DNA from: Paramecium tetraurelia
Lineage: Eukaryota
Direction of reading: 5' to 3'
Assembly: GCA_000165425.1 (NCBI GenBank)
Contig: CT868274.1
Location: 248,001-312,000, forward strand
DNA: 64,000 bases
A program made the position numbers and the translations under genes. The notes under the pieces are model-generated. The model made no database searches. It had not been told where the DNA came from and saw only the letters and a list, made by a program, of their open reading frames with translations. This document shows, piece by piece, positions 35,500 through 55,027 of the stretch. Numbering within the stretch: the first letter of the stretch is position 1; each line of letters starts with the position of its first letter.

Positions 35500-38400
35500 T
35501 TAATATTATCACACCATCTTATAATCACCAAATTAGAGATAATTTCTTAAGGGATGCTTTTATTCTCTTTTATATAGTCCATAAACAAGGCTTATGAATT
35601 TACTTTTTGATTAAAATATGAAATTCAAAATGTTTGACAATAGTAATTTCTTGCTTTTTTATAATCAAGTCTTAATTGTTACTATAGTAAAATTCCGAAG
35701 TAGTAAGGTAAATCAAAAATGAAAATACATACAAAAAAATTCTATTTTAGATCTTATAATTTACAATAGTTATGTCTCTGTAATTACATAGTATGAAAAT
35801 ACCTCATAGAATTTATTTATCCAAAATTTTCCACATTTCCTATCTACTAGCAAATATATAAGTTTAAGGCTAAAAATTATTAATAAATACTAAGTTTAAA
35901 TTATAGATTGAATCAAAGGATACTTCTGTGAACTTTGTTTTGCTTTAATCTAGTTAATCTTCAAAAAGATGAACCATTAAATAATATGTTTGTTACAAAC
36001 CCTGATTTAATACCCATCAGCAATATTCTAACAATAATTTAAATTGTAGGAATTTAGTATTTACAAATATTTGAATAAAAGTAATCTTCAATTGATGATT
36101 CTCTTGATTAAAGGCTAGGAGAATCTGCTTCTGTAGCTACTAAAACAAACTATTCTATATATTATGTGTATTTATGAGATATAAAGGTCTTTAGAAAATG
36201 TAAACACCCATGAAATTGTAGTTTCAAAGTGGAATTGATTTTATGTTAGTTCAAGTTTTAGCTCATATGTATATTTTTACATGTAAATGTTATAGATTGC
36301 AGCCATCAAAAGCAAAAGTGCTATAATTACAAGATATAATAAAATCGATCTTAATTTTAGTTTAAACCAGTAATCACAACCTATAAATTTTAGTAGTTAT
36401 TAATTCTGTTGTTATCTTATAATCTCTATCAACTTTAATTACTCCATCTGAATTTAATGAAATGTAGTCTATTATAATATTCATACTTTATACTACGTTT
36501 ATATTTCATTAAAATAATTAAAACATTATCTAAGTTTTTTGTATTTAATTACACTCTCAATTGTAGACTTATCAAAATATTAAATTTGACGATACAGAAT
36601 TTAATATAGATCTACTATTTTTAATAAGTTGTAACAATTCATAGCTATTAAGATACCTAAAACTATTAAACCAGTTAACATATCAATAATAAAACTTAAA
36701 ATTCTTCATATCTTCTAATAAATTATATTACTGAACTACTTGATCGGTTTATTATAAATTGAGGAAATAGGTTTAATGTTGAATTTGTTTGAATAAAATT
36801 AAATGAAACTCTAACTCACCTTCTATAAATCCTAATGAATATTTTATTATAAAAATGGCTATTAATCTTAAATGGTTGTATGTGATATTCAAATACTTTT
36901 TGATTTTATTATGTTATTCTTTAATAAATAAATTTAAATATGGCTTAATTGAAATATCCTGAATTTATGCATCAAATATATTATCATTTAATAGACTCTT
37001 TTATCCTAACGATACATTCTGTAAGATGCTTTAAATATTTTGCAAAAATTTTAATTAAAATTCATTTTTTACATTTTTATTTATTTTCGAAAACAATCTA
37101 TTTCTAATCAAAATTCAGTAAACTATCTTACTGATCGTATCTCAAATATTACTTTATATTACACCTGAAAGATGTTCTTATTTCGAAATATTTTACATCT
37201 CATTACTCTTGATTTGAAATAATTTAAAATCTTCTAATTCTAATAGAATTTGGTATTTAGAAACTAGCAATAGTTTAGGGCAACTCCATAATAAATTAAA
37301 TTAATATTCAAAAAAATTATTCAATTAACTAGTAGTTTCAACTATTATTTTCCAATCCTCATTAATAACAACATAATTGCCTGATAATTGATGTTGAATT
37401 GGTCTAATCATAACGATAAATTCTAATAATATACATTAGTTTATGGCTATTTTTAAATATTTATTTGCAGGAATAAGTTATGAATTCTGATATTAGACAA
37501 GCATTTTCTTTCTTGCATATAATGAACTTGTCTTTCCGTTTTCAACAAATTCTTTGATTCTCAACATATGATTTCGAATCATAGAATTAGTAATAATCTA
37601 ATTAATATTACTGAATCCTTATAATCCAAAGATCTATCTAGTATATTCATACATTTGACAATAGTTCCATTTTCTTTAGTAGCTATCATTGAATAAAAAA
37701 GCTTTTTTGGATCAAAAGCCTGTCTATAATGATTTTCATAATCAGAATCTGAGTCTGAATCCTCATCACAAAAATTCTATTGCAAATTGTTTGAAATTTG
37801 ATAATCAATTGTTTATCCCTTCATTTTTTAATTGAGTACATATCTCTTATACCATATATACAAGAATTCCCATTATGGTTTTTTACTTAGATAATGTATT
37901 TCATGTTGCTAAATATAATAATAACATTTTACCACATCTTTTCACATTCAAGGATACCACTTTATATTTTATTATCTAATCTCAATAAATCAGATTCTAA
38001 AATCTTCTCCTAATCAATAGCATTCCAATATTTCAGAAAATTGTAAATTACTTCAGCTATTTTCGTTTTTATTTTCTCAAAAATCATCTCTATTTCTAGC
38101 ACATTTTCAAAATCTAGATAATTTTTATAATTATTAGAATTTTGCAGAATAATTTTATTATCCATCATCATCAATAACAAATTAAAGTCTATCTGCTAAA
38201 AAAAGTTAATTTATTAAATTTTTTATTTTAAAATTGACATCTACATTAACGCTTAAGATTTATTTTTTATAGAAAAAAATCAATATTTAGCATATTACAA
38301 TATAATCTAATAATTTTGTTTATTCTAAATAATACATTGTTCAAACAATAATTTGATTTCAAATCTGAAAAACGATTAAGAATGATATTAAACTTTTTAT
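35500..38400 (-). pseudogene. Decayed TmcB-like/PAS-domain membrane protein gene
   Basis: Fragments FLKYWNAIDQEK..ECEKMW, FLYIWYKRYVLN, GTIVKC, NSMIRNHMLRIKEFVENGKTS, broken by frameshifts and TGAs. Boundaries approximate. Confidence 0.55.
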
Positions 38401-40081
38401 GTCTAACTATTAACAAAGATTTTTCTTTTTACATCATAAAATTAGTGACATTAACAAAAACAGTATCCGATTTAACAATTATCAAGTGAGAGATCTTTTT
38501 ACTATTCTAATGTTTGATATTTTCTTTCTAATTGCGAAATGCAACCTATTTTACGATGTTTCTAAATCAACCCAATTATTATATACTTCTTATTATCTTA
38601 TTAAGCATTTAATTGGTATAAATAGTAAATTTTATTCAAGATTAATTAACTAGAGATATTATTTTACATCAAATAATATTAAATAAATTTCTTTTATACA
38701 CATATTATTACATAACAATACATTTATTTCTTGATTTAATTTTAAAACTGATAATATTATTAGAAAAGTTATTGAACTTGAAATATTTTTTATATTAAAT
38801 ATTCGCTAGGTATAATAATTAAATTTATCGATTTTAAAAAATAATTCCTTATGCTGTTGATATTTCAGATAATAATTATTACTAAATATCTTGGGTAAGA
38901 ACTGTAAGAGAACACCGAATAAGCTGAAAATGAAATGCTAATAAAATTAATTTAATTGAATATACATAATGAAGAACTGATTAAATATGAATGCTATTAA
39001 GTATGGTTATAACAATTTTAAATATAAAAATGTTAACTTATTTTAATTTTATATAGAGGATTTAATGGAGACTTAAATTTTCCAATAGTGCAGAATAGTA
39101 TATTGCTGTTTTCTCCAAAATTAATTTATAATATTTTATAATTCTTTCTGCAATATCAAATTATTCAACAATCTTTAAAGAATTTTGTTGAGAAAATTGG
39201 AATTATTATTAATTTTGATAGTTTATATTTATCCAAAAAATTTTCTATTTATAATAGTATCTAAAAATCTCATTTGATTAATTCCAAGGTATTGGGTTTA
39301 AATTATATCAATATAAGATTCTAAATTAAGAAAATTGAAAAAAAAGGTTAAGTTGATTAAAAAATAACTGATTTTGTTGTTATTGATGCAAATAATAATT
39401 ACAATTTGGGTTAAATTTGGAAACATAATATTATTGCTCCTAATGATTATATGTATTTTTAATGATTAATCGATACTAAAGATTGAGTATTTTCTTTATT
39501 ATTATTATATCATCTATTCATGTCGACTTTGCCAATATTTACTTAATGCAAAGAATATTATTTAATTTCTAACAAAATTTTGATTATTTAGATAAATTAA
39601 TATTTTTAGATGTAGTAAATAGGATGATCAAGGAGTAGATAGTGTTGAAATTTTTAGTTAATAAGAAGAAATAACATCAATTTATGAGATTACTTCTATT
39701 TTGAGAAAAGCGGTAATCTACAATAACGACTAAAGAATATGCCAATAACATAATAACAATATAATTAAGTTCATATTGATAATTTACATTCATTTTGAGT
39801 AGTATGTATTAATGTGTGAATTTGAAAGTATTATGAACAGAACTTATAGTTGATTGATGAGATTACTTTTAATAACGAATTAGTGTATCAAAAAAGTAAA
39901 AAGAATTATGCAAAAATATATTATTTAAATAGAAATAAAGTGAATAGTATTGGAAAAATGGCAATATTCATTCTGCAAAGAGTAGCGAACGTTTTTTCAA
40001 GAGAGTGCTCTTATTTGTATTAGATAATGAGATAATTTTTGAAAACTACAGAGATATTTAAAAATATTACTAATTTTTGTT

Positions 40082-40400
40082 TCAATTAAAGGTTGTACAT
40101 TTCTTCTTTGAGAGTTGGATTTGTAAATGATTAGATGTTTAAATCATTTAAGTATTGACAGATTCTTTCCTCTAGATCATTAACTTCCTCAGACGCATCA
40201 TAGCTAGAAGTTCTACTTAGACTATCTTCAGTAGTCCAAGATTATCTTAAGCTGTCTCCATCAGAATTATCACCTTAAAATCCGCCTTTAAGCAAGTCCA
40301 TTTTGACAACAAAAGATTTAATTAACTATATAAATAATACAAATTTCAGAGATTATTATTGCATTTAATTAGGAATAATTAAGTTCACATCTAATATCAT
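40082..40400 (-). CDS. Small acidic/Ser-rich hypothetical protein
   Basis: MDLLKGGFQGDNSDGDSLRQSWTTEDSLSRTSS...KCTTFN*. 5' end uncertain. Confidence 0.4.
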
Positions 40401-41820
40401 CTAATCATATTATATACTCATTAAATATAGATAAATCACATTTATACTTTAGGGGATTAACTTAATGAATAATTAAATTCTGGTAGTGAAAAAATACTTA
40501 ATAAATTAATCGAAATATAATTAGGAATTCTAACAATAATTAAAACATAATAAAACTGTGCAATCAAATTTTCAAATTAAAATAATCATAAATAGAATAT
40601 ATTTATCCTACGTTGTTTAATTAATTAGGTTTGTGACAAGAAATTCAAAAATTATACTTTATGCATTATTATGAAATCATTTGAGAGGTCTTAAATGGAT
40701 CACTAGAAAGTTTAACAAATTTAAAATGATAAATAATAGTACTATGAAACCCTTTATTCTATATTCATGCAGGCCATGTTACACCCTTTGCTCAAAAGTA
40801 ATAATAATAACAGACTTATGATAAAATAAAATTTTCAAATACTTATGCAATTTAGTAAATAATTATGAAACAATTCAACTAAAAAGGATGGATAATTTAG
40901 AAATTAATTCATAACGGAAATACTATTGAGCTCTCTATGGATATTGGCTATTTAAAATGAGAATAAGCAGAAAGAGGAGGATAGTAAATTGAAAAAGAGT
41001 TTATTTAAGAAAACATTTTAATAGCATTAAGAATTAAAGTAACAATTATAAGAATAAATTCAGGCTAAATAAATGTAATTCAAATTTATATTAATGACTT
41101 TAACATTTTTTCTAATTTCACAATAATTTGTGATAACTAAACACAAAAGAAGTCTTTTCTTTTAACCATAATAATTGTATAAAAATTTACAGATTAATAA
41201 GTTTGATAACCAAAATATATTGAAAATCTTACAAATTTCCCTATTCTTTAAATTTATACTAAAAATTCTATATTTTTTATGCTTGCAGCTTTACTAAATT
41301 TAGATTTTGCTCTCAACTTAAATATATTAGATCATCACAAGTTTTCTTAAAATCGGTATTGTTTTATAAATCAGTGATACATAATCTTCATTGAATTTTG
41401 TTTATCTATAATTAATAAACTAATTATTGGCTAAAATTGGTATAATTCAATCACTTCTAATTATTTTCACTAATCTATCAAATTTTGAATTAAATCCTAT
41501 GTCATCAGGTATTTTTTAATAACCAATTTATGATAATCAATTACTATATAAAAAATGAAATGATATATTTTTCAAATGCAGCGACAAGTCCAAGTAAATA
41601 ATCCATAAACAAATCGCTGTAATATTCATTTTTTGATTTTTGACAATGAAATAAAATATATTTCTTAAGATTTTAGTCTTATTTCATTTTTTTATATACT
41701 ATTAAATACGCTATTAAATGCAAATCTTATTTCCTCTTAAGAGAATTATAATTATTTCGTCCTTGTAGAAAACTGAAGCCCAAATTATAAATTATGAAAG
41801 AAAGCGAAGATTCGTTATTC

Positions 41821-41942
41821 TAATACTAAAATGATTTAATAATATCACTAATACTAAAATGATTTAATAATATCATTAATACTAAAATGATTTAATAATA
41901 TCATTTTAGATATTTGATTTAATAATATCATTTTAGATATTT
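41821..41942. repeat. Minisatellite: three 28-nt units, then a 27-nt variant and a partial copy
   Basis: taatactaaaatgatttaataatatca(c/t) x3, then tttagatatttgatttaataatatcat and tttagatattt. Confidence 0.9.
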
Positions 41943-42805
41943 CAATAGTTAAAGGTAAAAAGTATTATAAATCTAAAAAAAACTATGTCTCTATTCATTT
42001 GAGGTTAAGAGAGCAGGTAGCTGTTACTTAGTATGAGATTTCATATTCAGAATTCATTTAAGACTCAATTTTTTTTGTTGTTTTTGAAAGTTTTTCAGAA
42101 TTAAATAAAGAAAAAATTCATAAAATTAATATAGTACTAAATTCTTACTCAAACAAACAAGTATTTAATCGAAGCTAGAGAGATATTTTTCACCTTGTAA
42201 AAAATAATGATAAAATATTCCTACGTAGACTTTTTTTAATCATCTCCCAACCCCAACTATATATTATAATTTTAACTTTGTTATAACACTAGCAGTTTCT
42301 TTTTCATACTCCTTAATTTTAATCGATATAGAATTAAAGGGAATCAAATATAAATTTAATGCTCTGAGTAAAGTCTTATATTTAAAATGGTTTTCTATTT
42401 TTGATTTCTCTCAAATAATATTTCCAAACCAACAATTACTACAGATTTGAATAGAATGTTAGGAAAGCAAAATACTTTGTTCAAATTATCCTATTAATGT
42501 ACCAAGATTTTTTAGTTTTATTTGGAATCACCCAAAAAGTTTGATTCATCAAACAAAAAAATTTTGGCATCCTTTATAGAATTTTACAACTTTATTGGTT
42601 CAATGCTTTTTTTATTAGAATTCCACTTTAATTATAGCAGTTAATTCTATTTTATTCTTCAAAATGTAATTTATTTAAGTATTGTACTATTGTGAGTTTT
42701 ATGCGTCATAATTGTTCTCGATATAATTAATTAAAAAATAGCTTTTATATTATTTATATTAACTTATTTTTTTAGTAAGAGTATTCATATGATATGAATT
42801 TTATG

Positions 42806-43448
42806 TCAATCCATTTCTGCTTGATCGTGTTCCAGATCTTGATTAGGAGATAGACAACTATTGAATGAACTTATGGATGGAAATAGTGAATTACCGTTAG
42901 TTAATTATGATTTTTTACTGTTTTATTCATCCTATAAAGAATTTATCTAATATAATTACTGAATCAGAATCTGTATAAGACATATAATCCTAAAGTTCGA
43001 TGGATACCTTCCTTGCATTATCTAATCTCTAGAAATTTCATAATTACTTTACTCAATTTATGGTAATTCAACTTCTGAAACTAAAGATTTGATTCCAAGA
43101 ACTTGAATGGAAGGATTATTATAATTTACAATGACAATTTATTTTAGGCTTTGAACATTCATCTCCCTATTGAGACAGCATTCCCATAAAATATTTTAGT
43201 CATCAATAATAACCACTTTAAATTCTAACTTTGAATCTAGTATTACATATTTAATTTTATATACATGCAGGCAGTTCTAAAGGATAGTCAGTATACCATA
43301 AAGGGTACATGCTCTCATTAGTGAGAAGTTATAAACCATAAGTCGGATTCCAATTTCCTAATTCAGGTTTGTTTCCAACAACTTTGACATGCTAATAAAA
43401 CAGTGTTTTGCAATATATTCTAAAAAAAACTTATGTATTCATCTACAT
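42806..43448 (-). CDS. CBM20 starch/glycogen-binding domain protein
   Basis: VFFRIYCKTLFYQHVKVVGNKPELGNWNP..L.TNESMYPLW..LEFKVVI..WE...NR. Confidence 0.85.
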
Positions 43449-44407
43449 ATTTTTATATAATTTTTATTTATATCTACACATATTAAATCACGTTCTTATT
43501 TGTGATTGTGCGTCATAGAATATTATAATAAATATTTAATTAAATATAAAATATATTATTTTTGCCTATGAGATGCTTACTAAAGTAAATTGTTATAATA
43601 ATTATAATCTGTTTGGTCACTGCACATCTCAAAATAGAAAATTGAATCAAGTCAAATTATTCATTCTATTTCGTATCAATTTTTGATGAAAATAATTTTA
43701 TAATTTTATTTTTCTTTAATTCTATCTGTATTTAAGAAAGTTAATGTTTGAATTAATCGATTTAAACCAGATGAATCATTGATATAAGTAGACATAATCT
43801 TATAATTAAATAATATATTAAATATAGTCAACATTCTTTCTTAATGTATTGACTAAAAAAAGAAAATAAGAACCCCTACTTCCATTTTATAATTCTAATT
43901 AGATTATATGACTTCTTTCAATTAACATTGAATTGATTATAATAGTTTCGTGTTTCATAATTACTTAAAAAATTAATATTGAAATGCCTTCATATCAAAA
44001 TTTTCTTAAATAAATTATCATTATTTTAATGTGTGTATTTCTTTGCTCTAGTTTTAAATATCACTATAAGATATATTTTAGGATTTTCGAAAATAACCAA
44101 TTTAGAAGGCATAAGATCATGATTTAAGGATAAAATGTTTGTTCTAATTATGGTTAATTGTAGTATTCATAAATCAGAAGAAATTGAAAACCATAAAATT
44201 AAAAATTTTCGTCGATGGCTTGTTTTGGGATTCTTCCCCTGAGCCTACTCTGCTACCTGAGGGACGGAGATAGGTTTAGAGTAGACAGGATGACATATAG
44301 AAGAACGACGAATTGGCAAAGGGATAGAAGAGAGTTAGATTTAAAAAGGAGCCCCTGATTGATAAGCCGGTCGGGCCTAGTAGCCCGGAGGAAGATGTTG
44401 AATTTGA

Positions 44408-44677
44408 ATTATTATTGAAAAAATTTTTGGTAGATTACCTTGCATATTTACTCCTGCACATCGGCCTGAATTTAATGCTATAGAACACATGTTTGGATGG
44501 TTAAAAAGAGGTTTGGTAGCAGCTTAAACTACTTCAACTAGTCAACTTGTCTATTAAATATACAGAATCATTTGTGATGTATCATAAAACTTAATAGTTG
44601 ACTTATTTCAAAGATAAAGAATAATCATAAATTTTAAACTTCCGACAACTGAGTTGGCTTCTCTTATACTAAATTGA
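44408..44677 (+). mobile_element. IS630/Tc1/mariner transposase C-terminal fragment
   Basis: IFTPAHRPEFNAIEHMFGWLKRGL matches the LPxYSPxxNPIExxWxxLK motif, followed by typical C-terminal helices. No upstream D residues. Confidence 0.8.
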
Positions 44678-44949
44678 TTCTAAAATAATAATAAAATAAA
44701 TGAAGATTATTATTTTCGTAGAATATTATTAACTTTCTTAAATAATAGAAAGGCATAATCTTTCAGCATTATTATGTTAAAGAGAATAATCTAGGAATGT
44801 TTCTTGCTTTAAACTTAACATATATCTAGTTTAATTTGAATTATAATCCAAATAAGGGTAAAACTGATTTCTTCAAAATATCTTTTGACATTAACATTAT
44901 CACAGGGATTGTTAGATTTATAAGACTAATCAATTAAATAATTGTACCT

Positions 44950-45790
44950 AAAAGAATAATTTTATTTTTTAAAATGAAAAATATGTTCTTCTATCAAAAT
45001 TACTTTATAAGCATCTAGTCGGATTTAAGAAAATTTACAAATATAATTTATTTCTTATATTTTTCAATAAGATTAGACTGTGGTGTAAATGGAGTTAAAA
45101 ATTGACGAGGAATCAAATTTAGAATTTTTTGTACAATTTTAATTAAATGAACTTTAGAGTTGTCTAATATAAATATTACATTTTCACTATCATTATCTAA
45201 TATGCTAAAAACCATTATGACTAATAGCTCCTAATATTCCAAAAGTAGAAGTATGTTATTTATAATTTACTATTTTAAAGGAATCTTATTGAAACCAAAA
45301 TCTTTGGACTTTTTACTTACTTCATCAATGAAGATATTAATGGCTTATTTTTGAATTTGGTTAATAAAAACAATGCATAGTTAAATCTTTCTACAATAAT
45401 ATTTCTACCTGATGCTCTTATATTACGTTTAATTGGACACCTATTTGTTTAATTGAACACCTATATGAACATTTAGCTATTATTTCACAACTTTGCGAAA
45501 GGTGAAATAATAGTGCACTTTCTTAGAAAATCTTTCCAAAAATTCATTGAATATATTTTTAAGATTTATCATATTTTTCTACTATATCCTAAATTTACTT
45601 CAATTAATATGAATTCTGAAAAATGTTTCATCAACCATTTATTCATCATTATTTAAAAGAACATATTGTACTTGACTTGTTGAGAATCCTAATTGTCCTG
45701 AAATTGTTGAATTAGAAAAGTGATATTCTTCATAACTATTCTTTTAAAAGACAAAATGATTGAATAGTCATCATTCTTTAGCTTAAAATT
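44950..45790 (-). mobile_element. Degenerate, near full-length IS630/Tc1/mariner transposase (DD32E)
   Basis: HTH SNSTISGQLGFSTSQVQYVL, then CSYR, ERFNYA, IFIDE (D at 45324-26), GILGAISHNG, FILDNSKVH (D at 45162-64) and TPFTPQSNLIE (E at 45063-65). Contains frameshifts, a deletion and a 20-nt duplication. Confidence 0.85.
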
Positions 45791-46953
45791 TTCTTTTTGT
45801 TTTTATGCTTTTTCTTATAATCTCTAAAACAATTAAAAAGCGATGTCTTAACATAGATTTTCTTTAAATTGTATATTTCTTCCCCAATAAACACAATTAT
45901 CTCTCAATGTATATGAAATGATTGACCATTTTCATTACAGTTTTATTGTCTTACATTAATTTTTATTTCTGCCTCAATTTGAAAACCGCATAGAAGTTAA
46001 CTATGCAAGAAATAAATTGAAGTTCGAAAAGTTTAAAAAGAAAAAATTGAAAAGAATAAATAGATTGAATTATTAAATATACGAGTTGAATTATAGATAA
46101 ATAACTAATTCCAAGAACACTTTATGATAATATATGCTTAAATCCATGAAAAATTTAATTACTTTTCAAGTAACTAGGTTAAATTCAATTAAATTATTTT
46201 GATCAAAAAAAACGCTTATCTAATCATAAATTAACTTAGTTAATTTACAAAATATTTATTTATAGTTTCACAGGGTTATCAAAAAAACTAATTTGTTAGA
46301 AAGATGGATTTTTGATATTTTAAGTAAGCATAGGAAATTTAAATGGGCTTAATCAAAACACAAAATTCTTTACATCCTTGATAGTTGATCAATTCATTAA
46401 AGATAAATTATAAAATAGAGTAATTTAGATTATATTAATTAATTTTTTTTAGCTCCTTATACTACAGAATTCAATCTTACTGAAATATCTGAAAACTGTT
46501 AAAAGAAGGAAGTATTATTTTCTAACAGAGAATTATATGTATTTAATTGTTGAGAACTTATAATTATTATGATAGATTCAAACTTATTATTGTAATTGAG
46601 AATATTATTTATAAATTCAAGATTCATTTTTATATATTATATATATTTATACTACATAATTTCGATTATGGTCATAATTAGTATATAAATAATAATTTGA
46701 TTTAAAAAATTCATTTCTATTCAAAAATCTAACAGTAATCAATAATAATACTTACTTTTAGAAAATATGGATGAAGTTATCATTAAAAGCTATTTTGATA
46801 GAAATATCAAATACTTTTTGAAATGTTACAATTACAAGAAGAAATTTAAAAGAATCTATATCTAAATATTAAACCTATTATATAATACAATATTTTAATA
46901 TATATATAAATTTGGAATTTTTTAAAACAAAATGCTAATTTAAGAAAAATTCA

Positions 46954-47371
46954 TCACTTATCATTTTCAGAATTCAGGGGGCAATAGGTCTTCTGACTAT
47001 CTTGATTTAGGACCGGAATGAGGAGATCGTTGTACCTTGCCTGGAAATTCGTATTCTGAATTATCATCTGTAAATAAATTTATTTGATACGATAAAGATT
47101 CTTTCTAATATTTAATCCAAACAATTCTGCTAAATCTTTCTACCTAACCAAGGAAATAAGTTATTAAGTGAGCATTTCGTCATCCTTCTTTTGCTCATAT
47201 TATTCAAGTTATTAAAAAATTTCCACTTGCTCAATTATTACTTTTTCTATCAAAATAGAACTGAGTATTACCTTTTAATTGTTATTTTTCATGATCATCT
47301 ATCAATTGTTATTTATACAACTCTTGGATGTACCAAAATAATTTAGAATGTGGCAACTCGAAATTTTACAT
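46954..47371 (-). CDS. Hypothetical protein
   Basis: MQNFELPHSKLFWYIQELYKQQLIDDHEKQQLK-(intron)-EKVIIE... to TGA. Confidence 0.6.
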
Positions 47372-47459
47372 AAAAATTTATTTGTTAAATTATTGATTTA
47401 AATATTATCGATATTTATACTAAGAAAACAAATTATTTAGAATATTTTAATAATTAATA

Positions 47460-48974
47460 ATGCAGCCATTTTTTGCGCAATTTAGTATGTTCCGACAATT
47501 TATCTCTGAAGATCCTAATTTATTCAACACTAGCTCTAGCGATTTGTATTTATGTTATTTATTATTAGTTTCCAATCATTCGATAGCGATATATCAATTT
47601 AATTTGCCAATTAATCGCCGCCAATTATTCATATAGAAAACTCAGGAATTTAAATGATATCCATCATTAGAAATGAAGGAAGGAGCGGGTAATTCTTTCA
47701 TTTGAAATTAGACAAAAAAAGTAGATCCAAGAAATGTACACAAGATTAAGAAAGAATGAAATATAAAACAATGAATTGAATAAAAATGAACCTCATATCA
47801 AAATAACTGTTTCAAAAAACCAAAATCTATAAAACTCGACTTCCTCAATTGAACACTATATTAATTAATTTGGGTATTTAAGTTTTCCAATTTAAAGTAT
47901 GATAGGTTCAATAAAAAATGCAGATTCAGAAGATGTTATTATTGGTAGACAAGAGAAGCTAGAAAACTATTAAGGTTAATTAATATTTCCAAATGATATA
48001 AGTACATAAATCAATAATTTTAGTTTTAAGAGAAACTGAGAGATTGATATCTAGAATTCATTGCAAAATAATCTTTAGAAACTTTTTTAGAAAAGAAAAT
48101 TAAATATTGCCATTGTATTAACAAACCATAAGTTAATTAAAATTACATTATAATATCAAATAAAGAATTTCATAATTTTTAGAGTAAAATAATATATATT
48201 TTAGGGAGCCTAAAGATTGTTATATCTAAGATATTGGCAGCGTTTTTGGAACGCACATCAAAATTGATAGAAACTATGTGAAATTGAAAAAATATCAATA
48301 ATATAGCATTGGGAGTGAAACTACAATTCAGATTCTTGAAATTCATAATTTAGGATCAGAATTAAAACAAAGGGATATAGAATTTGATAAATTGATATAA
48401 AAGTTAAGAAATATCAAATACAAATGCTCACTGTAGGGATTGGATCTCAAGCTGTATGAAAGATCATTGCAGGTTGATTAAAGTTTTGATTAAATCCTAA
48501 CAAATCTAAGATGTTATAATATTCCATTTATAATGATGAAATTTGGAGGATCTGGAGTTACAGACATTAACTAAAATCTCTTTTTCGCTAAAGACCCTAA
48601 TACTATTTTTTCAATAGGAAGAGGAAATGATAATAATATAAGAATCAACTCAAATACAATATCGAGGAAACAAACAAGATTTAGATTTAATCGAAAGTAT
48701 AATTTTAGTAGATGTTTATAGAGAAAATAATTGGGAGATTGCAGACGGAAGTTAAGATAAGGATTCAGCAAATGGAACATGGATGTAACTATAATCAATT
48801 TAAGAAAGAGAGTAAAAACTTGGATCATAAGCCTATCCTTTGAAAAATCTGTCAGAAATAAAAATAAGTGATTACACTTTGAAAGTCGAACTCTTCAAGG
48901 GAAAGTATTTTAACATTTTTAAATTTAGCGAGAAAGAAAAAGCTAGATGTTAAGTCATGAAATCTTTGTTGTGA
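47460..48974 (+). CDS. FHA-domain protein (two FHA-like domains)
   Basis: DVIIGRQ..ISRIHC..YIQDIGSVFGTH and FSIGRGNDNNIRINSNTISRKQ..DGS..SANGTW. Confidence 0.85.
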
Positions 48975-49279
48975 TAATTTTTTGTTTTTATTGTTATTTT
49001 CTGTTTGATATGTTAGCCATTACCATCTTTCCTGAAAAACTATCAATAACTTTTTTTAATTTGAAAAATTTAATTTGTTAGATGTTAGATTAAGATGGGT
49101 TATTTTTGATATTAGTTATTAAATTATTTCATGATAGGAGAATTTTTTTGATACTATTATTAAATTTCAAGCAATTTTTAATTTATTTTCTTTATTTTGA
49201 ATTTATAACTTAGAATTTCAAGTTAAAATAGCTCTTTCAAACTTAAAGGATTAATATTGAAATATAATTAAATAAAATA

Positions 49280-49870
49280 ATGTATGATTTTTCTGAGGAG
49301 GCTCAAACTGATAAATAGAACGTTTAATAGGATGGGTTTTAAGGGGATTAGGTAATACTTTAGAGTATATTAGATTGCTGCCTCTGAAGCTTTTTCATAT
49401 GAGACATCAACTCAACCAATTACACTAAATATATACGTGGTACAATTTAAGTTAAGCATAGAGCCCAGAATAATAATAACGAAAGGATAAATTAAGAATT
49501 CTTGAAGATGAAAGAATTGCTCAAATTCGAGAGAAGGATTAATAGGAGAGATTATTGAAATAATAAAAGAAATAGAAAGGCCTGGAATTTTTTTAGGAGT
49601 TCAAAAAGTAGATACAGTTATTTATAATAAGACAATAAGAAATGGAAATAACATAAAGAAGAAGTCAAAATAAGTAGTAATAAGAGATCTGGAATGAAAA
49701 TCAAAAAAATCGTAATCAATACGTATGATAGTTTTTCTAATTACAAGAAAAACTCTTGGGATTAAATAGCATCAAATATCGCTTTAAAAGACGGGGAATA
49801 TCCTGGAGAAAAAGATGTAACAAAGATGAGATAAGCAATCCTTAATAAAAGAATCGATCTGACTAAGTGA
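49280..49870 (+). CDS. CLC: Clathrin light chain
   Basis: Acidic N-terminus, central helix IREKDQQE..GLEFFQEF, C-terminal SWDQIASNI..KDVTKMRQAIL. Confidence 0.8.
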
Positions 49871-52348
49871 TGTCCATTAATTATAATATCAGCATTCAAT
49901 TCATAGTAATATGTGCATCATAATTCTAATTCAGTCGTTATCCAAATATTTCATATCTATATCTATATGTCTAAAAATAATAATTTAATTTAAATCATAA
50001 ATTCGGATTTTTAAGAATCGCCATTCTAATTTTCCGTTCAAAAGCGTCGTCCAAAAATAATACCTCTCTTGGTACCAAGTGGATAAATTTTATAGCATAT
50101 GTTAGTTTGAATTTTAAATTAGTTTCTAAAGCAATCATTATAATAGCGACTAAAATTAATGTAAACGAAATTGATGAAACAAGGATTTTCTATTTTATTT
50201 AAAAAAAAAATATACTTCTAAAATAGATTTTTAATTTAAGACTTGTTCGGAAAAGTTTCTCATCGCCCTTACTGATGACATTTATAAGAATTCTGCAAAC
50301 AAATAAGCTCCTTCTACTTCTAATGCATTGATAGGCTTTCGCTAAGAAAAATCTTCGGTAATTAATTCTTATGTGATTATTTTAGATACATGATTCAATA
50401 CAGCTTAAATTCCTAATAGAAAGGATCCTTCAAATGAATTGATACAAATTTATTGAATTTATTAATTGTTTGACTAAAGTAATATAATTATTTACTTCAT
50501 TAATAAGTTGACATATATCATTTGTATCTTAATCCAGAAAGTAAGATACAAAATCAGGACGAAAAAGCAAATTAACCTGATTTTTATTCAATAACTCTTA
50601 TTAATATTATTTGATTTATAGAGATGATTGATTAAGCCAATAGATCATATATTTAAAATCTGAGTCTTTTAAATATGGAAAGAAAACCTAATTGTTCAAT
50701 TATTCTTTTAAACTATAAGTTAATGCTATATTGAAACATAAATCAGAAGTATTTTTATGCATAGTTGCTGTTGGTTTATACTTCTTAATAAATTCAGATA
50801 AAATAAGAGTGTTAGATAAGTTTACGATTAAGAATCCAATAAACATAGTATAGATGAATATCAAAAACTTGGTAGTGTTGACTTTGGCTTTTTTGTATAT
50901 TGATTTTTAATAACTCGATTAATTTGTTTTTGTCTATTTGTTTAAAGAATATATTTCACTTTCCTTTTGTTTCTCATTAAAAGTGTAAAATTAGGTTATA
51001 TTATGATTTTCAATCTAGTTAATTAAGTAATATGAATATTCTAATTCAGACTCCAAAGCATATTTATCGATGTTGAGCATAATATTGCCAAAAAGTTGCC
51101 TCTATTTTGCAAATTTTCTATAATAGTAATTGGAGAACAAAAGGCAAATGAAATTTACAAATAAAAAACATGCAATCACTATAATTTGGTCATTGATTTG
51201 TTTGGAATTTCTAGTTATAGTATTGTTGTAAACTTAATCACTCAAGTATGAACAAATTTCAAATAACAATTTTTAATTTAACATTTAAAATGTTACTGGA
51301 GTAATTATTTTAGGAAGTTCATTATTAAAGTAAACCCCATAAATGAATTACTAATAATCAAAAAATTTCATGAAGAATGTTCGAGCACTAAAATTTTCGT
51401 ATTTATAAGTATAATCGTCTTACAAATATATTACTTAATAATACCTATCAAATAATAAATCTTACAAAAGTTTAGATTAAAATAATTTTTTAATTTCTTC
51501 ATGAAAATGTTCAAATTCTAATTTGAAATATTATTTTGCAAAATCAGTTTCATTTAGAAACTATTCATTTGTTATTAAATTCTAATTCAATAGATTAGTT
51601 TTGTCATAGATGATAAATCTCAAAATAAAGAAACTTAACATAGGTTGTAGGATGTCGTTTTTAATTGACAATTATCCAACATCAGTTATATAATTATTAA
51701 AATTGTTTTATATAAGAACAGTTTATAATAATAAGGAGACTATTCCTAATAATGATGAAACCACTAAAAAGATGATAGCTAATCTAGCAAATATGTTTTT
51801 AGTTCTTTTTTAAACCATTTTATCTATATATTCCACTTTATCTTAAAAAGTTGAATCATACACTTCTCTTTTTTCTGTTGGAGTCCTATCATCTTAAACT
51901 GATAGTTTTTATCTATTAATATCTGAACATAATTAAGGCATGCTTAATTATTTCGAGAATTTCTTCTTGATCATTGAAATATCGTCACTTACTCTTGAGG
52001 CATCATGATAACGATTATAAAATTTTTATTAAAATAATAATAATTCGTTGGTTGAAGATTTTTCTTAAGGAGAATTTAATTATTGATAAGTAAGTTCTGG
52101 TGATAATAATTAAGCATCTAAATCTTTATAAGCATCAAAATCATAAGGAGAATCTATTTTTATTGCTTCTAAGAACTTTTATTATAATTCTATCTTTTAA
52201 AGGGATTTTGTTGAACATTCAATCAAATTTGATGATTATGAAATTCCATTTAACTTTTTTAAATAATCAAAAGTTAATATCAAATATGACAATTTTTTAT
52301 TGTGGTATTTAGATTAAATTTCAATTTGGGATTCAAATCTATCCAATA

Positions 52349-52467
52349 NNNNNNNNNNNNNNNNNNNNNNNNNNNNNNNNNNNNNNNNNNNNNNNNNNNN
52401 NNNNNNNNNNNNNNNNNNNNNNNNNNNNNNNNNNNNNNNNNNNNNNNNNNNNNNNNNNNNNNNNNNN
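52349..52467. other. Assembly gap (N run)
   Basis: 119 consecutive N. Confidence 1.
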
Positions 52468-55027
52468 GATTTTGCATTACTTTATTCTCTTTCAATTTTT
52501 ACATTATAAGGACAATCTCCTAATTTCTTAATCAAAAAATCAACTTTATTTTGTTTAACTAATATTACTATGCTAGTTTTATTTGCATTAGGATTCTAAT
52601 TCATAAATAATTTAATGTTCTTTACTAGCTTTTGTGTAATTTCTCAGGATTTCTGCTTGATAAAACACTTTTAAATTTAAAATGCTAATAGCTAACTAAA
52701 AATAATTATTTATTACATGGATTTTTCTAATATATTTCATTTATGTTTTTTTCAATTTAACAAAGCTTTATAGTAACCTTAAAACAATAATCAAAAATTT
52801 GATTTTATGAAACTTACTCTTTAATCAAATGATCATAAAAAATGGATTTATGCTTTAGTAATTTAATAATTTATAAATTTAAGGCTCTTATGATATATTC
52901 TGTTTTGTAGAATTCTTCAAATATTAAAGTAGTTTAATCAAATTATTAAAAAACATTCTTTCTTAATCTTGATTTCAATAATTGTTTACTTTCCTCTCTT
53001 AAATAAGAATAAATAGTTTAATATTAAAAATACATTGGTTTATAAATATTTCTTTGATAATTTATTGGCTAAATAGTTAACATAGAAGAGTTTTTCATAA
53101 TACATTTATTAAGGCAAATTGTTTGTTGCTTATTTTATGTTTAATCTTAATACTCTAGGATGGAACTGCAAATTGAATAAGCTTAAATATAATTTTTTGT
53201 ATATAAATGAATTAAGATCATTTAAATAATTTTTTGGTTTGATAATGTTAATTATATAAAAGCGCTTGTTGATAATTTCAAGTAAATATCAAAGATTTAT
53301 TCTCTTAAGGAACAATTACAATTATGACATTAGGTTAAATGCCGTGAATTGATATAGACGTAAAAAGGTAATTTTGATTAGTTATTGTTTGATTCTAAGT
53401 GTTAGAATAAAATTTATAATATTATATTAGAATCTGTAAGATTATCAAATATTTTAAAAACTACTATTCTACTTTTCAATAATTTAAATATGTTAACAAC
53501 TAAAGGTATAACAATAATTTGAAATATTCCAAAATTATAATTATTGAAATTGAAAAGAATAGTTAAGTATTCTGTTATTGATAAAATGATAGCCATACTT
53601 TAAGCTGTGATTATTATAATATAAGCATTAGAATCTAAGTAATGAAAATTTGTAAATAAATTTATCAACATTAATATTGATATTAGAAATGTGATTGTTA
53701 CCTAGTATATCTAGTTTAGTTAATAAAAACAATACAATAAAATTTAAATAATATTTAAGGTACAAAGTATGATATCCAAAAATGTTATATAAAATGTGGA
53801 TTATATTGTGATTTAATAAGACAATTTATTTTAATTGATTAGTAATTTTGTGATGTCAAATAAAGTAAATAATAAAAGTGTTATTATTATAAGTATGGTA
53901 TTAATATTAGATTAGTCTTAGATCTAAGTCAAAGTGATCTCAAAAAGTAAATTAATGATTATTATATCGTAAAACTCATAAATAAATGCTGAAATCATGA
54001 AAATTAACTGAATTGGTTTGTTTTTCTTAAAAATATAATTTTTCATAGTAATCTTTTATTAAAATAAATCTTCTTTATTATTGACATAATTTCTAAGTTA
54101 CTATGTAATGGTAAGAAATATGATAATAGCTAGAATAAAGGGTAGTATGAATAAATATTATCCAGAAATTATTACAGAGGGCCTTGAAAAGCATGATATT
54201 AGTTAGTAAATTTAATTGTATTCTGTTTAACTACGATTATGCATATAAACTATGTATGAGGAGTTCTTAAATTGCCCCATTAAAAATATAATATATGAGA
54301 GTAGTTTGTTTGTGAATGGATATTGATTATTCAATATGATAAAAATTCTCAAAAGGTCCTAAAATCCAAGTTTCAAAAGGCGGATTAATTTCATGGATAA
54401 ATATACTTTATATTAATTATTAAAAGAATGCATTTAGACTTGTCATGATAATACAAGAAAAAGTGATATATTTGTTGATAAAATTCCATCCTACCACAAC
54501 TGGATACAACATAATATATAATTAATAATCAAATCCTTTCTTAGAAAATATAAAATGATGCTCAAAAAATCAATATAAATTAATTGTCGATACCTTCTCC
54601 CACATATAAATTCTCAACCGTAATGTTATAACAATTATTTAATATAATTTCTCATCTAAAATAATAGAAAACCATTTTAATTGCAATTTAATTTTACTTC
54701 TAATTTAAAATATAATTCTAAACTTAAATAGTAAGTTTATCAAATTTATTTAAAAATGAAAAACAGGTTTTTCTTAGTTTTACCTTCTGGCCTAAGCATT
54801 TTCCATAAATACCCATTTTCTATATAGGTTTTAAAAAGGGCACATTTAGATGACAAAAAAATAATAATTGTTTTGTAAAATTGAACAACTTGATTCATAC
54901 TAACTCTAATCAAGTTTAAAAAGTCAGAGTATATCTAATTAGAATTTTATTCGTTATGAAAACAAAATATTTTTTTAAATCGATCAATTTACTAATATAC
55001 CGTAAATAAATTAAAATATTTTTTCTG

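Follow-up and report, generated by a model that had tools for sequence, protein, structure and literature searches.

The flagged stretch of Paramecium tetraurelia DNA is, with a probability that we put at roughly 0.8, an old and decayed transposase pseudogene of the Paramecium-type IS630/Tc1/mariner clade, which lies in ~3 kb of nested mobile-element debris and is presumably carried passively. Throughout, the window denotes the whole 64,000 nucleotides that were analysed (contig CT868274.1, positions 248,001 to 312,000 of the forward strand). The pseudogene, here called relic 1, is not isolated, as it had seemed in the initial annotation of this DNA, but sits in a nested cluster with two further transposase relics, remnants of ORF2 and a LINE fragment. 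Its parent clade would be that of Anchois, DDE1-3, Thon and Sardine, elements that moved by cut-and-paste through a DDE transposase with 32–33 residues between the second catalytic aspartate (D2) and the catalytic glutamate (E). Taken as a whole, the cluster (~43.7–46.6 kb) comprises relic 1 with its own ORF2 remnants, a ThonC fragment on the opposite strand (relic 2), the 5' end of a LINE inside that fragment, and relic 3. The order of nesting would be a Tc1-type element into a Tc1-type element, followed by a LINE into that.

The locus and its surroundings

The window is A+T-rich (~18–35% G+C per kb) and holds genes, read in genetic code 6, for a urocanase, a protein kinase, an ODAD1-like coiled-coil protein, an importin and a lysyl-tRNA synthetase. 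It contains one gap, of 119 N (52349–52467), and neither telomere repeats nor a Tetrahymena-type breakage sequence was found in it. To its left, the cluster is bordered by a gene encoding a CBM_20 starch-binding domain (42806–43487, minus strand; E 7.5e-12), and a gene with an FHA domain lies on its right side (47903–48871, plus strand). Farther to the right, at 50430–54442 on the minus strand, two long ORFs of 737 and 613 amino acids surround the 119-N gap; neither has a Pfam match, and contig depth over this stretch is low in both DNA runs that were mapped.

A decayed transposase gene on the minus strand

Relic 1 is what decay has left of a transposase gene from the Paramecium IS630/Tc1 clade; it occupies ~44990–45975 on the minus strand, as delimited by three-frame translation in code 6 and by peptides compared by eye. 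All comparisons of relic 1 with named consensuses were made by eye on the peptides printed in Arnaiz 2012 (Text S1; PMC3464196) and in Guerin 2017 (supplementary text file; PMC5405496). When 44300–46500 was translated, the seven minus-strand motifs that the initial annotation had listed in canonical order were all recovered as described; the motifs of relic 1 are spread over three frames, with the first catalytic aspartate (D1), D2 and E in a single one of them. The interval annotated at first, 44950–45790, marked the right site but was too short, as relic 1 continues upstream to an N-terminal Cys motif, NCNENGQSF (45942–45916), which is identical to the ThonA motif NCNENCLTF in 7 of 9 residues.

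Following the gene toward its C-terminus, we recognized a first putative helix-turn-helix (HTH) block at 45719–45657 (FSNSTISGQLGFSTSQVQYVL; FSNSTISGQLGFSTSQVQY at 45719–45663, STISGQLGFSTSQVQYVL at ~45710–45657) that is identical to ThonC at 12 of 19 positions. The block SALLFH...RCSIKQ (45519–45445, including AKCSYRCSIKQ at ~45480–45445) has its counterpart in SILFN...LSITQ of Thon and Sardine, and ERFNYA (45391–45374) has its counterpart in RRFEFA of Anchois. D1 (45326–45324) lies in INIFIDE, which corresponds to the first catalytic D block of Anchois, IVYIDE. Between D1 and D2, SFK...GILGAISHNGF (45285–45208, with GILGAISHNGF at 45240–45208) corresponds to VIGAIACDGF in Anchois and GGIGQNGFQ in DDE1. 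D2 (45164–45162) is embedded in FILDNSKVH, the counterpart of LVLDNASIH in Anchois, and E (45065–45063) in TPQSNLIE. The block from D2 to E (45164–45063) is a single open frame in which exactly 32 residues, uninterrupted by stop or shift, separate the two catalytic positions, a count and a placement that the initial annotation had given correctly. D, D and E thus follow one another canonically, in the DNxxxH and PxxNxIE contexts by which IS630/Tc1/mariner transposases are recognized. From the Cys motif through E, the blocks are colinear with the printed Paramecium transposases, and the D-to-E block runs in register with those of Anchois (13/35 identical), DDE3 (12/35) and ThonC (11/35). The two putative HTH blocks of relic 1 resemble printed Thon and Sardine peptides by eye, and the Pfam HTH families gave no match to relic 1.

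Relic 1 is a pseudogene, a dead copy with no remaining activity, because it carries at least six frame changes, stop codons and a 20-nt duplication and has lost ~30 codons of its core. In-frame TGA stops lie at 45906–45904 and 45773–45768, and the tandem duplication (45427–45466, reported as a repeat on the plus strand, 90% identity) shifts the frame. D1 and D2 are 53 residues apart, compared with 83 in the printed Anchois peptide (counted by eye), and ~24 codons are lost directly after the GF motif relative to printed Anchois and Thon. Relic 1 therefore has neither the single ORF nor the intact core of a functional or domesticated transposase. The earlier description of the copy as near full-length holds for its span, as Cys motif to E would cover ~293 of ~334 codons, but not for the core, from which the ~30 codons between D1 and D2 are missing. 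The copy is old, since no named consensus is close to it: its D-to-E block is, by eye, at most about one third identical to any printed consensus. Nor does any one subfamily clearly fit, as the DNA-binding end looks Thon-like, and the core and ORF2 look like those of Anchois and DDE1-3.

Database matches and the search for element ends

The signature D[NG]xx[ITV]H-x21-PxxNxIE, derived solely from published Paramecium peptides, has one match in the six frames of the 64-kb window, at relic 1, where 6.5e-6 would be expected from composition. Pfam DDE_3, which the initial annotation had proposed as a check, does match the C-terminal piece of relic 1 (E 0.0036), with 17.6 bits that stay below the gathering score of 28.6; a sub-threshold score is expected here because the piece is frame-broken and 81 residues long. 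Two further weak matches to DDE_3 bring the total within 2.4 kb to three (E 0.0036, 8.2e-5 and 0.0078; 17.6, 22.9 and 16.5 bits), all under 28.6 bits.

A HMMER search with the 201-residue frame of relic 1 against 1,835,955,588 representative proteins returned one match at E ≤0.001. This match, CAD8188427.1 (E 2.2e-5, 40.9 bits), is a Tc1-like transposase DDE domain-containing protein from Paramecium pentaurelia, a 106-amino-acid fragment on a 438-kb contig. BLASTP aligned it to relic 1 with 25 of 60 residues identical (42%; E 8e-14), and tblastn (code 6) with CAD8188427.1 found its best site in the window at 45185–45060 (E 6e-10, 21 of 42 identical), ungapped across D and E. Like relic 1, it is a fragment with 32 residues between D and E (counted by eye); by contrast, it has an open frame and exceeds the DDE_3 threshold (E 2.4e-14, 53.9 bits). 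The signature, this match and the colinear blocks bear out the original call of a decayed Tc1/IS630-type transposase gene.

Other searches returned little. NCBIfam gave no meaningful match to relic 1, a PDB sequence search with its D-to-E piece gave none, and word-based protein searches found no match to the 201-residue frame or, among longer proteins, to the C-terminal piece of relic 2. Searching from CAD8188427.1, we obtained 15 short IS630-like proteins, two of which carried a source name ('transposase' and IS630 family transposase, Bacteroidales). In the searches with relic 1, relic 2 and CAD8188427.1, full-length relatives were absent from the protein databases.

The TA-bounded terminal inverted repeats (TIRs) that had been suggested for the flanks did not materialize: neither TIRs nor TA duplications were found around the cluster. 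The best candidate, a 22-nt inverted pair at 43680 and 46188 (20/22), is at chance level, as 30 of 60 dinucleotide shuffles reached it; moreover, its right arm falls within relic 3, and it shares no 13-mer with the published consensus file.

Spacing and relationship to known elements

Canonical Tc1 is DD34E, and the initial annotation had presented the shorter spacing of relic 1 as a departure while noting that short-spacing elements occur in Paramecium. That remark was correct, and the departure dissolves, as 32 residues are the published norm of the clade and constitute no novelty. In its account of Thon and Sardine, Arnaiz 2012 states a 32-amino-acid spacer and calls the Anchois transposase similar (PMC3464196); elsewhere the same paper labels these elements DD35E. 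In the printed peptides we counted 32 residues by eye in Anchois A and B, DDE3, Sardine (for which the number is also stated in print), Thon A–C and Merou, and 33 in DDE1 and DDE2. Guerin 2017 (PMC5405496) lists 13 ITm families in Paramecium.

Among the printed elements, Anchois A/B and DDE1–DDE3, the 'simple' Tc1/mariner elements of P. tetraurelia, have the same block order as relic 1, down to the block around E (FLPPYSPQLNCIEK in Anchois, FLTPFTPQSNLIEK in relic 1). Anchois A/B and DDE3 share its 32 residues from D to E, whereas DDE1 and DDE2 have 33, and all are followed on the same strand by an ORF2, as is relic 1. Relic 1 differs from them in being about one third identical by eye in the D-to-E block, in having ~30 fewer core codons and in that no 22-nt TIRs were found at it. 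Its Cys motif and first HTH are, by eye, closer to Thon than to Anchois/DDE1-3. Relic 1 has a 32-residue spacer, as do Thon, Sardine and Merou, which are composite Tc1/mariner elements that also carry a tyrosine recombinase. The likeness to Thon extends to NCNEN and the HTH block (12/19 by eye) of relic 1 and to relic 2, which is a fragment of a ThonC copy. Unlike these composite elements, the cluster shows no recognizable tyrosine recombinase or long palindromic TIR, and relic 1 has an ORF2 like that of the simple elements.

More distantly, relic 1 has the DDE_3 fold signature, a putative N-terminal HTH and the DNxxxH and PxxNxIE motifs in common with canonical Tc1 (DD34E) and bacterial IS630. 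The spacer of canonical Tc1 is two residues longer, and compared with both Tc1 and IS630 relic 1 carries the N-terminal Cys motif and the accessory ORF2 as extras.

Nested debris around relic 1

Downstream of relic 1 by ~370 nt and on the same strand lies an N-terminal remnant of ORF2 (44694–44626, minus strand; LLLFQNQFSIREANSVVGSLKFM), whose start, SIREANSVVGSLKFM, follows by eye the (E)ANxxxGSxxSMY pattern of ORF2 starts and which is identical to ORF2_DDE1 in 10 of 16 residues by eye. Farther downstream, ERMLTIFNILFNYKI ... SGLNRLIQTLTFLNTDRIKEK (43840–43709, minus strand) is probably the C-terminal remnant, an assignment of moderate confidence made by eye against ORF2_DDE1. An extension of the ORF2 homology to ~44545 was dropped, because the DNA there is the C-terminus of ThonC on the other strand.

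Relic 2 separates the two ORF2 remnants and lies on the opposite strand. Its left part (43983–44188, plus strand) consists of ThonC-type codons, ISKF..., IFQDFRKQPIQKAQDH and FKDKMFVLIMVNCSIHKSEEIE, the last two identical to DDE_ThonC by eye in 14 of 16 and 18 of 22 residues, and its second catalytic D is replaced by V (44153–44155). Its right part (44408–44596, plus strand; LPCIFTPAHRPEFNAIEHMFGWLKRGLVAAQTTSTSQ...) is a ThonC-type C-terminus with the catalytic E and is identical to ThonC in 47 of 53 residues by eye. This part is recognized by Pfam DDE_3 (E 8.2e-5, 22.9 bits, sub-threshold) and by NCBIfam IS630 (E 1.3e-5); it ends ~18 codons short of the ThonC stop, and both ends of relic 2 are truncated. 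Relic 2 is far better preserved than relic 1.

The two halves of relic 2 are separated by a G+C-rich insert (44196–44405, plus strand) that we identified, from an exact 9-mer and then by eye, as the 5' end of a Group 4 non-LTR retrotransposon resembling RT36327. It tracks the first ~220 bases of the RT36327 consensus at ~75–80% identity (by eye) and ends at GATGTTGAATT. The sequence ATTGAAAA flanks it on both sides (44183–44190 and 44413–44420); as this looks like a target duplication, we read the insert as a LINE that integrated here and whose interior was lost afterwards. For the same block, the idea of a SINE or a small RNA gene was considered and discarded, as Rfam gave only chance-level matches (E ≥0.77) and the block matches the LINE 5' end; across the whole window, Rfam at gathering scores returned no match.

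Head to head with relic 1 lies relic 3, a DDE1/DDE2-type transposase (45983–46630, plus strand) assigned by eye against DDE1 and DDE2. Its N-terminus is open for 110 codons (KFNQIILIKKNAYLI...FTK...KNQ) and is followed by a large internal deletion. The C-terminal part reads ILYILDS*SIHQ...FFLAPYTTEFNLTE, then KLLKE...QLLR, with D at 46380–46382, a TGA at 46386–46388 and E at 46482–46484; the 33 residues from D to E are as in DDE1/2. Read through with X, it scores sub-threshold against Pfam DDE_3 (E 0.0078, 16.5 bits), and by eye its LIKKNAYLI and FLAPYT are identical to DDE1/DDE2. A second G+C-rich patch farther to the right (46966–47050, plus strand) gives a faint ORF2-like reading and shares no exact 12–13-mer with the published file of TE consensuses.

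Somatic retention and possible transcription

Of the 24 runs listed, 16 contain 50% or more of the words that were sampled from 41001–51000. Contigs from four runs were placed on 38001–52000; their depth cannot rank parts of the region, a hole between contigs proves nothing, and low figures stand neither for absence nor for copy number. In run X6, two contigs, 40224–45176 (depth 180.5) and 45152–49853 (176.7), span the cluster next to a flanking contig of depth 189.9. Because they bridge it, the cluster is joined without a break to DNA that carries genes in the X6 sample. To the right of ~49900, X6 has holes or low-depth contigs. The X6 sequence also carries a variant at 43966–43972 (AA inserted, A>C, A>T), which could represent a strain difference or junction heterogeneity.

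In run X1, a 3744-nt contig of depth 67.4 stops at 43967, near the onset of the TE-derived sequence. To the right of this point no long contig is listed, and bins read 0.4–28 as against 70–103 on the left; the low X1 values persist across expressed genes to at least 52000. Nine contig 'joints' were also listed, with sides of only 20–22 letters, and were taken as low-complexity matches.

Two runs from different studies, X17 and X19, for which the label 'RNA' is a guess, gave contigs at 44037–44484 and 44041–44552 without loose ends. These contigs span the LINE fragment together with the ThonC sequence on either side, and their starts lie within 4 bases of each other, which weakly suggests a transcript end near 44040. 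Over 45006–46400, no contig with the guessed RNA label is listed, a hole that proves nothing in itself.

Somatic TE sequence has published precedents. In the copy counts of PMC5405496, 92% of TE copies are MIC-limited, yet the MAC-destined compartment is itself 1.33% TE sequence, with TIR elements contributing 0.33 Mb. MAC-variable regions account for ~15% of initial assemblies in the four species of Sellis 2021 (PMC8354472) and for 9.2 Mb in P. tetraurelia as given in PMC13085455, a source that also describes a systematic DDE_3 scan of six-frame translations. Given these MAC-destined TEs and MAC-variable regions, a constitutively somatic and a variably retained reading of the cluster are both ordinary. 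As characterized in these sources, MAC-variable regions resemble the present locus in being TE-bearing DNA in macronuclear assemblies whose retention may vary between copies; the locus differs in being known here from the contigs of two runs alone.

Discussion

Ciliates normally eliminate TE-rich DNA. In Paramecium, scan RNAs that match DNA of the maternal macronucleus are filtered out, so that germline sequence found there escapes elimination in the following round of development. On this established biology, the cluster is probably carried along passively: once a decayed segment had escaped elimination, it would tend to persist, in all or part of the copies, because the maternal-macronucleus filter would remove the scan RNAs that match it. 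The locus itself is ordinary, because its spacing is the published norm and the copy sits amid other broken mobile elements.

The most serious alternative holds that the cluster is germline-limited or MAC-variable: only a fraction of the macronuclear copies, or only some lines, would retain it, and its inclusion in the assembly would be accidental. TE-rich DNA is, after all, normally eliminated, and in X1 the contig of depth 67.4 ends at 43967, at the TE onset, with bins of 0.4–28 beyond it and 70–103 before. MAC-variable regions are, moreover, documented in the published accounts (PMC8354472, PMC13085455). Against this, two X6 contigs bridge the cluster at the depth of its flank, 16 of the 24 listed runs contain half or more of the words sampled from 41001–51000, and the low X1 figures extend across expressed genes as far as 52000 or beyond; nor can contig depth rank parts of the region or a hole prove anything. 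We regard this alternative as having real weight and yet as rather doubtful. A related suggestion, which we advance tentatively and consider unlikely, is that the cluster marks the edge of line-dependent macronuclear retention, with an epigenetically set boundary on TE remnants, as the X1 contig stopping at 43967 and the X6 contigs running through at flank depth would fit, and that the LINE 5' end may drive local transcription, given that the X17 and X19 contigs start at 44037 and 44041. With the same reserve, relic 1 may separately represent an unnamed old lineage that combines a Thon-like DNA-binding end with an Anchois-like core and ORF2.

The remaining alternatives fare worse. That an unusual DD32E spacing defines a new Tc1/mariner family might be argued from the 34 residues of canonical Tc1 and from the D-to-E block of relic 1, which matches each printed consensus at only about a third of its residues. 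It is nevertheless very improbable: the 32-amino-acid spacer published for Thon and Sardine (PMC3464196) refutes the spacing as a novelty, by-eye counts give the same number in the printed Anchois A/B, DDE3, Thon A–C and Merou and in CAD8188427.1, and relic 1 aligns in register and without gaps to its Paramecium relatives (BLASTP, and tblastn with CAD8188427.1). Still less credit is due to a domesticated, expressed transposase-derived gene. The X17 and X19 contigs (44037–44484 and 44041–44552) that could speak for one carry a guessed RNA label and lie over the neighbouring Thon/LINE part, which has no start codon in its open frame and has its catalytic D changed to V; the frame of relic 1 itself changes at least six times and is interrupted by stops, its core is missing, and no RNA-labelled contig is listed over 45006–46400, although such a hole proves nothing. 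A chance resemblance in A+T-rich sequence, finally, could draw on the weakness of every Pfam match and on the single stop codon that makes long open frames common, but its probability is close to nil, refuted as it is by the signature (expectation 6.5e-6), the HMMER match (E 2.2e-5 among 1.84 billion proteins) and the colinearity of seven blocks.

An old, decayed transposase pseudogene within nested debris is thus the reading that we prefer. The families, the spacing of 32, the TE copies in macronucleus-destined DNA and the variably retained regions have all been published already, and the locus matters little beyond annotation. It neatly illustrates how nested transposons decay in DNA that makes its way into the somatic genome, and its reading shows that following motifs across frames can reveal relics that gene callers overlook. 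Beyond this, the locus could mark line-to-line differences in programmed DNA elimination.
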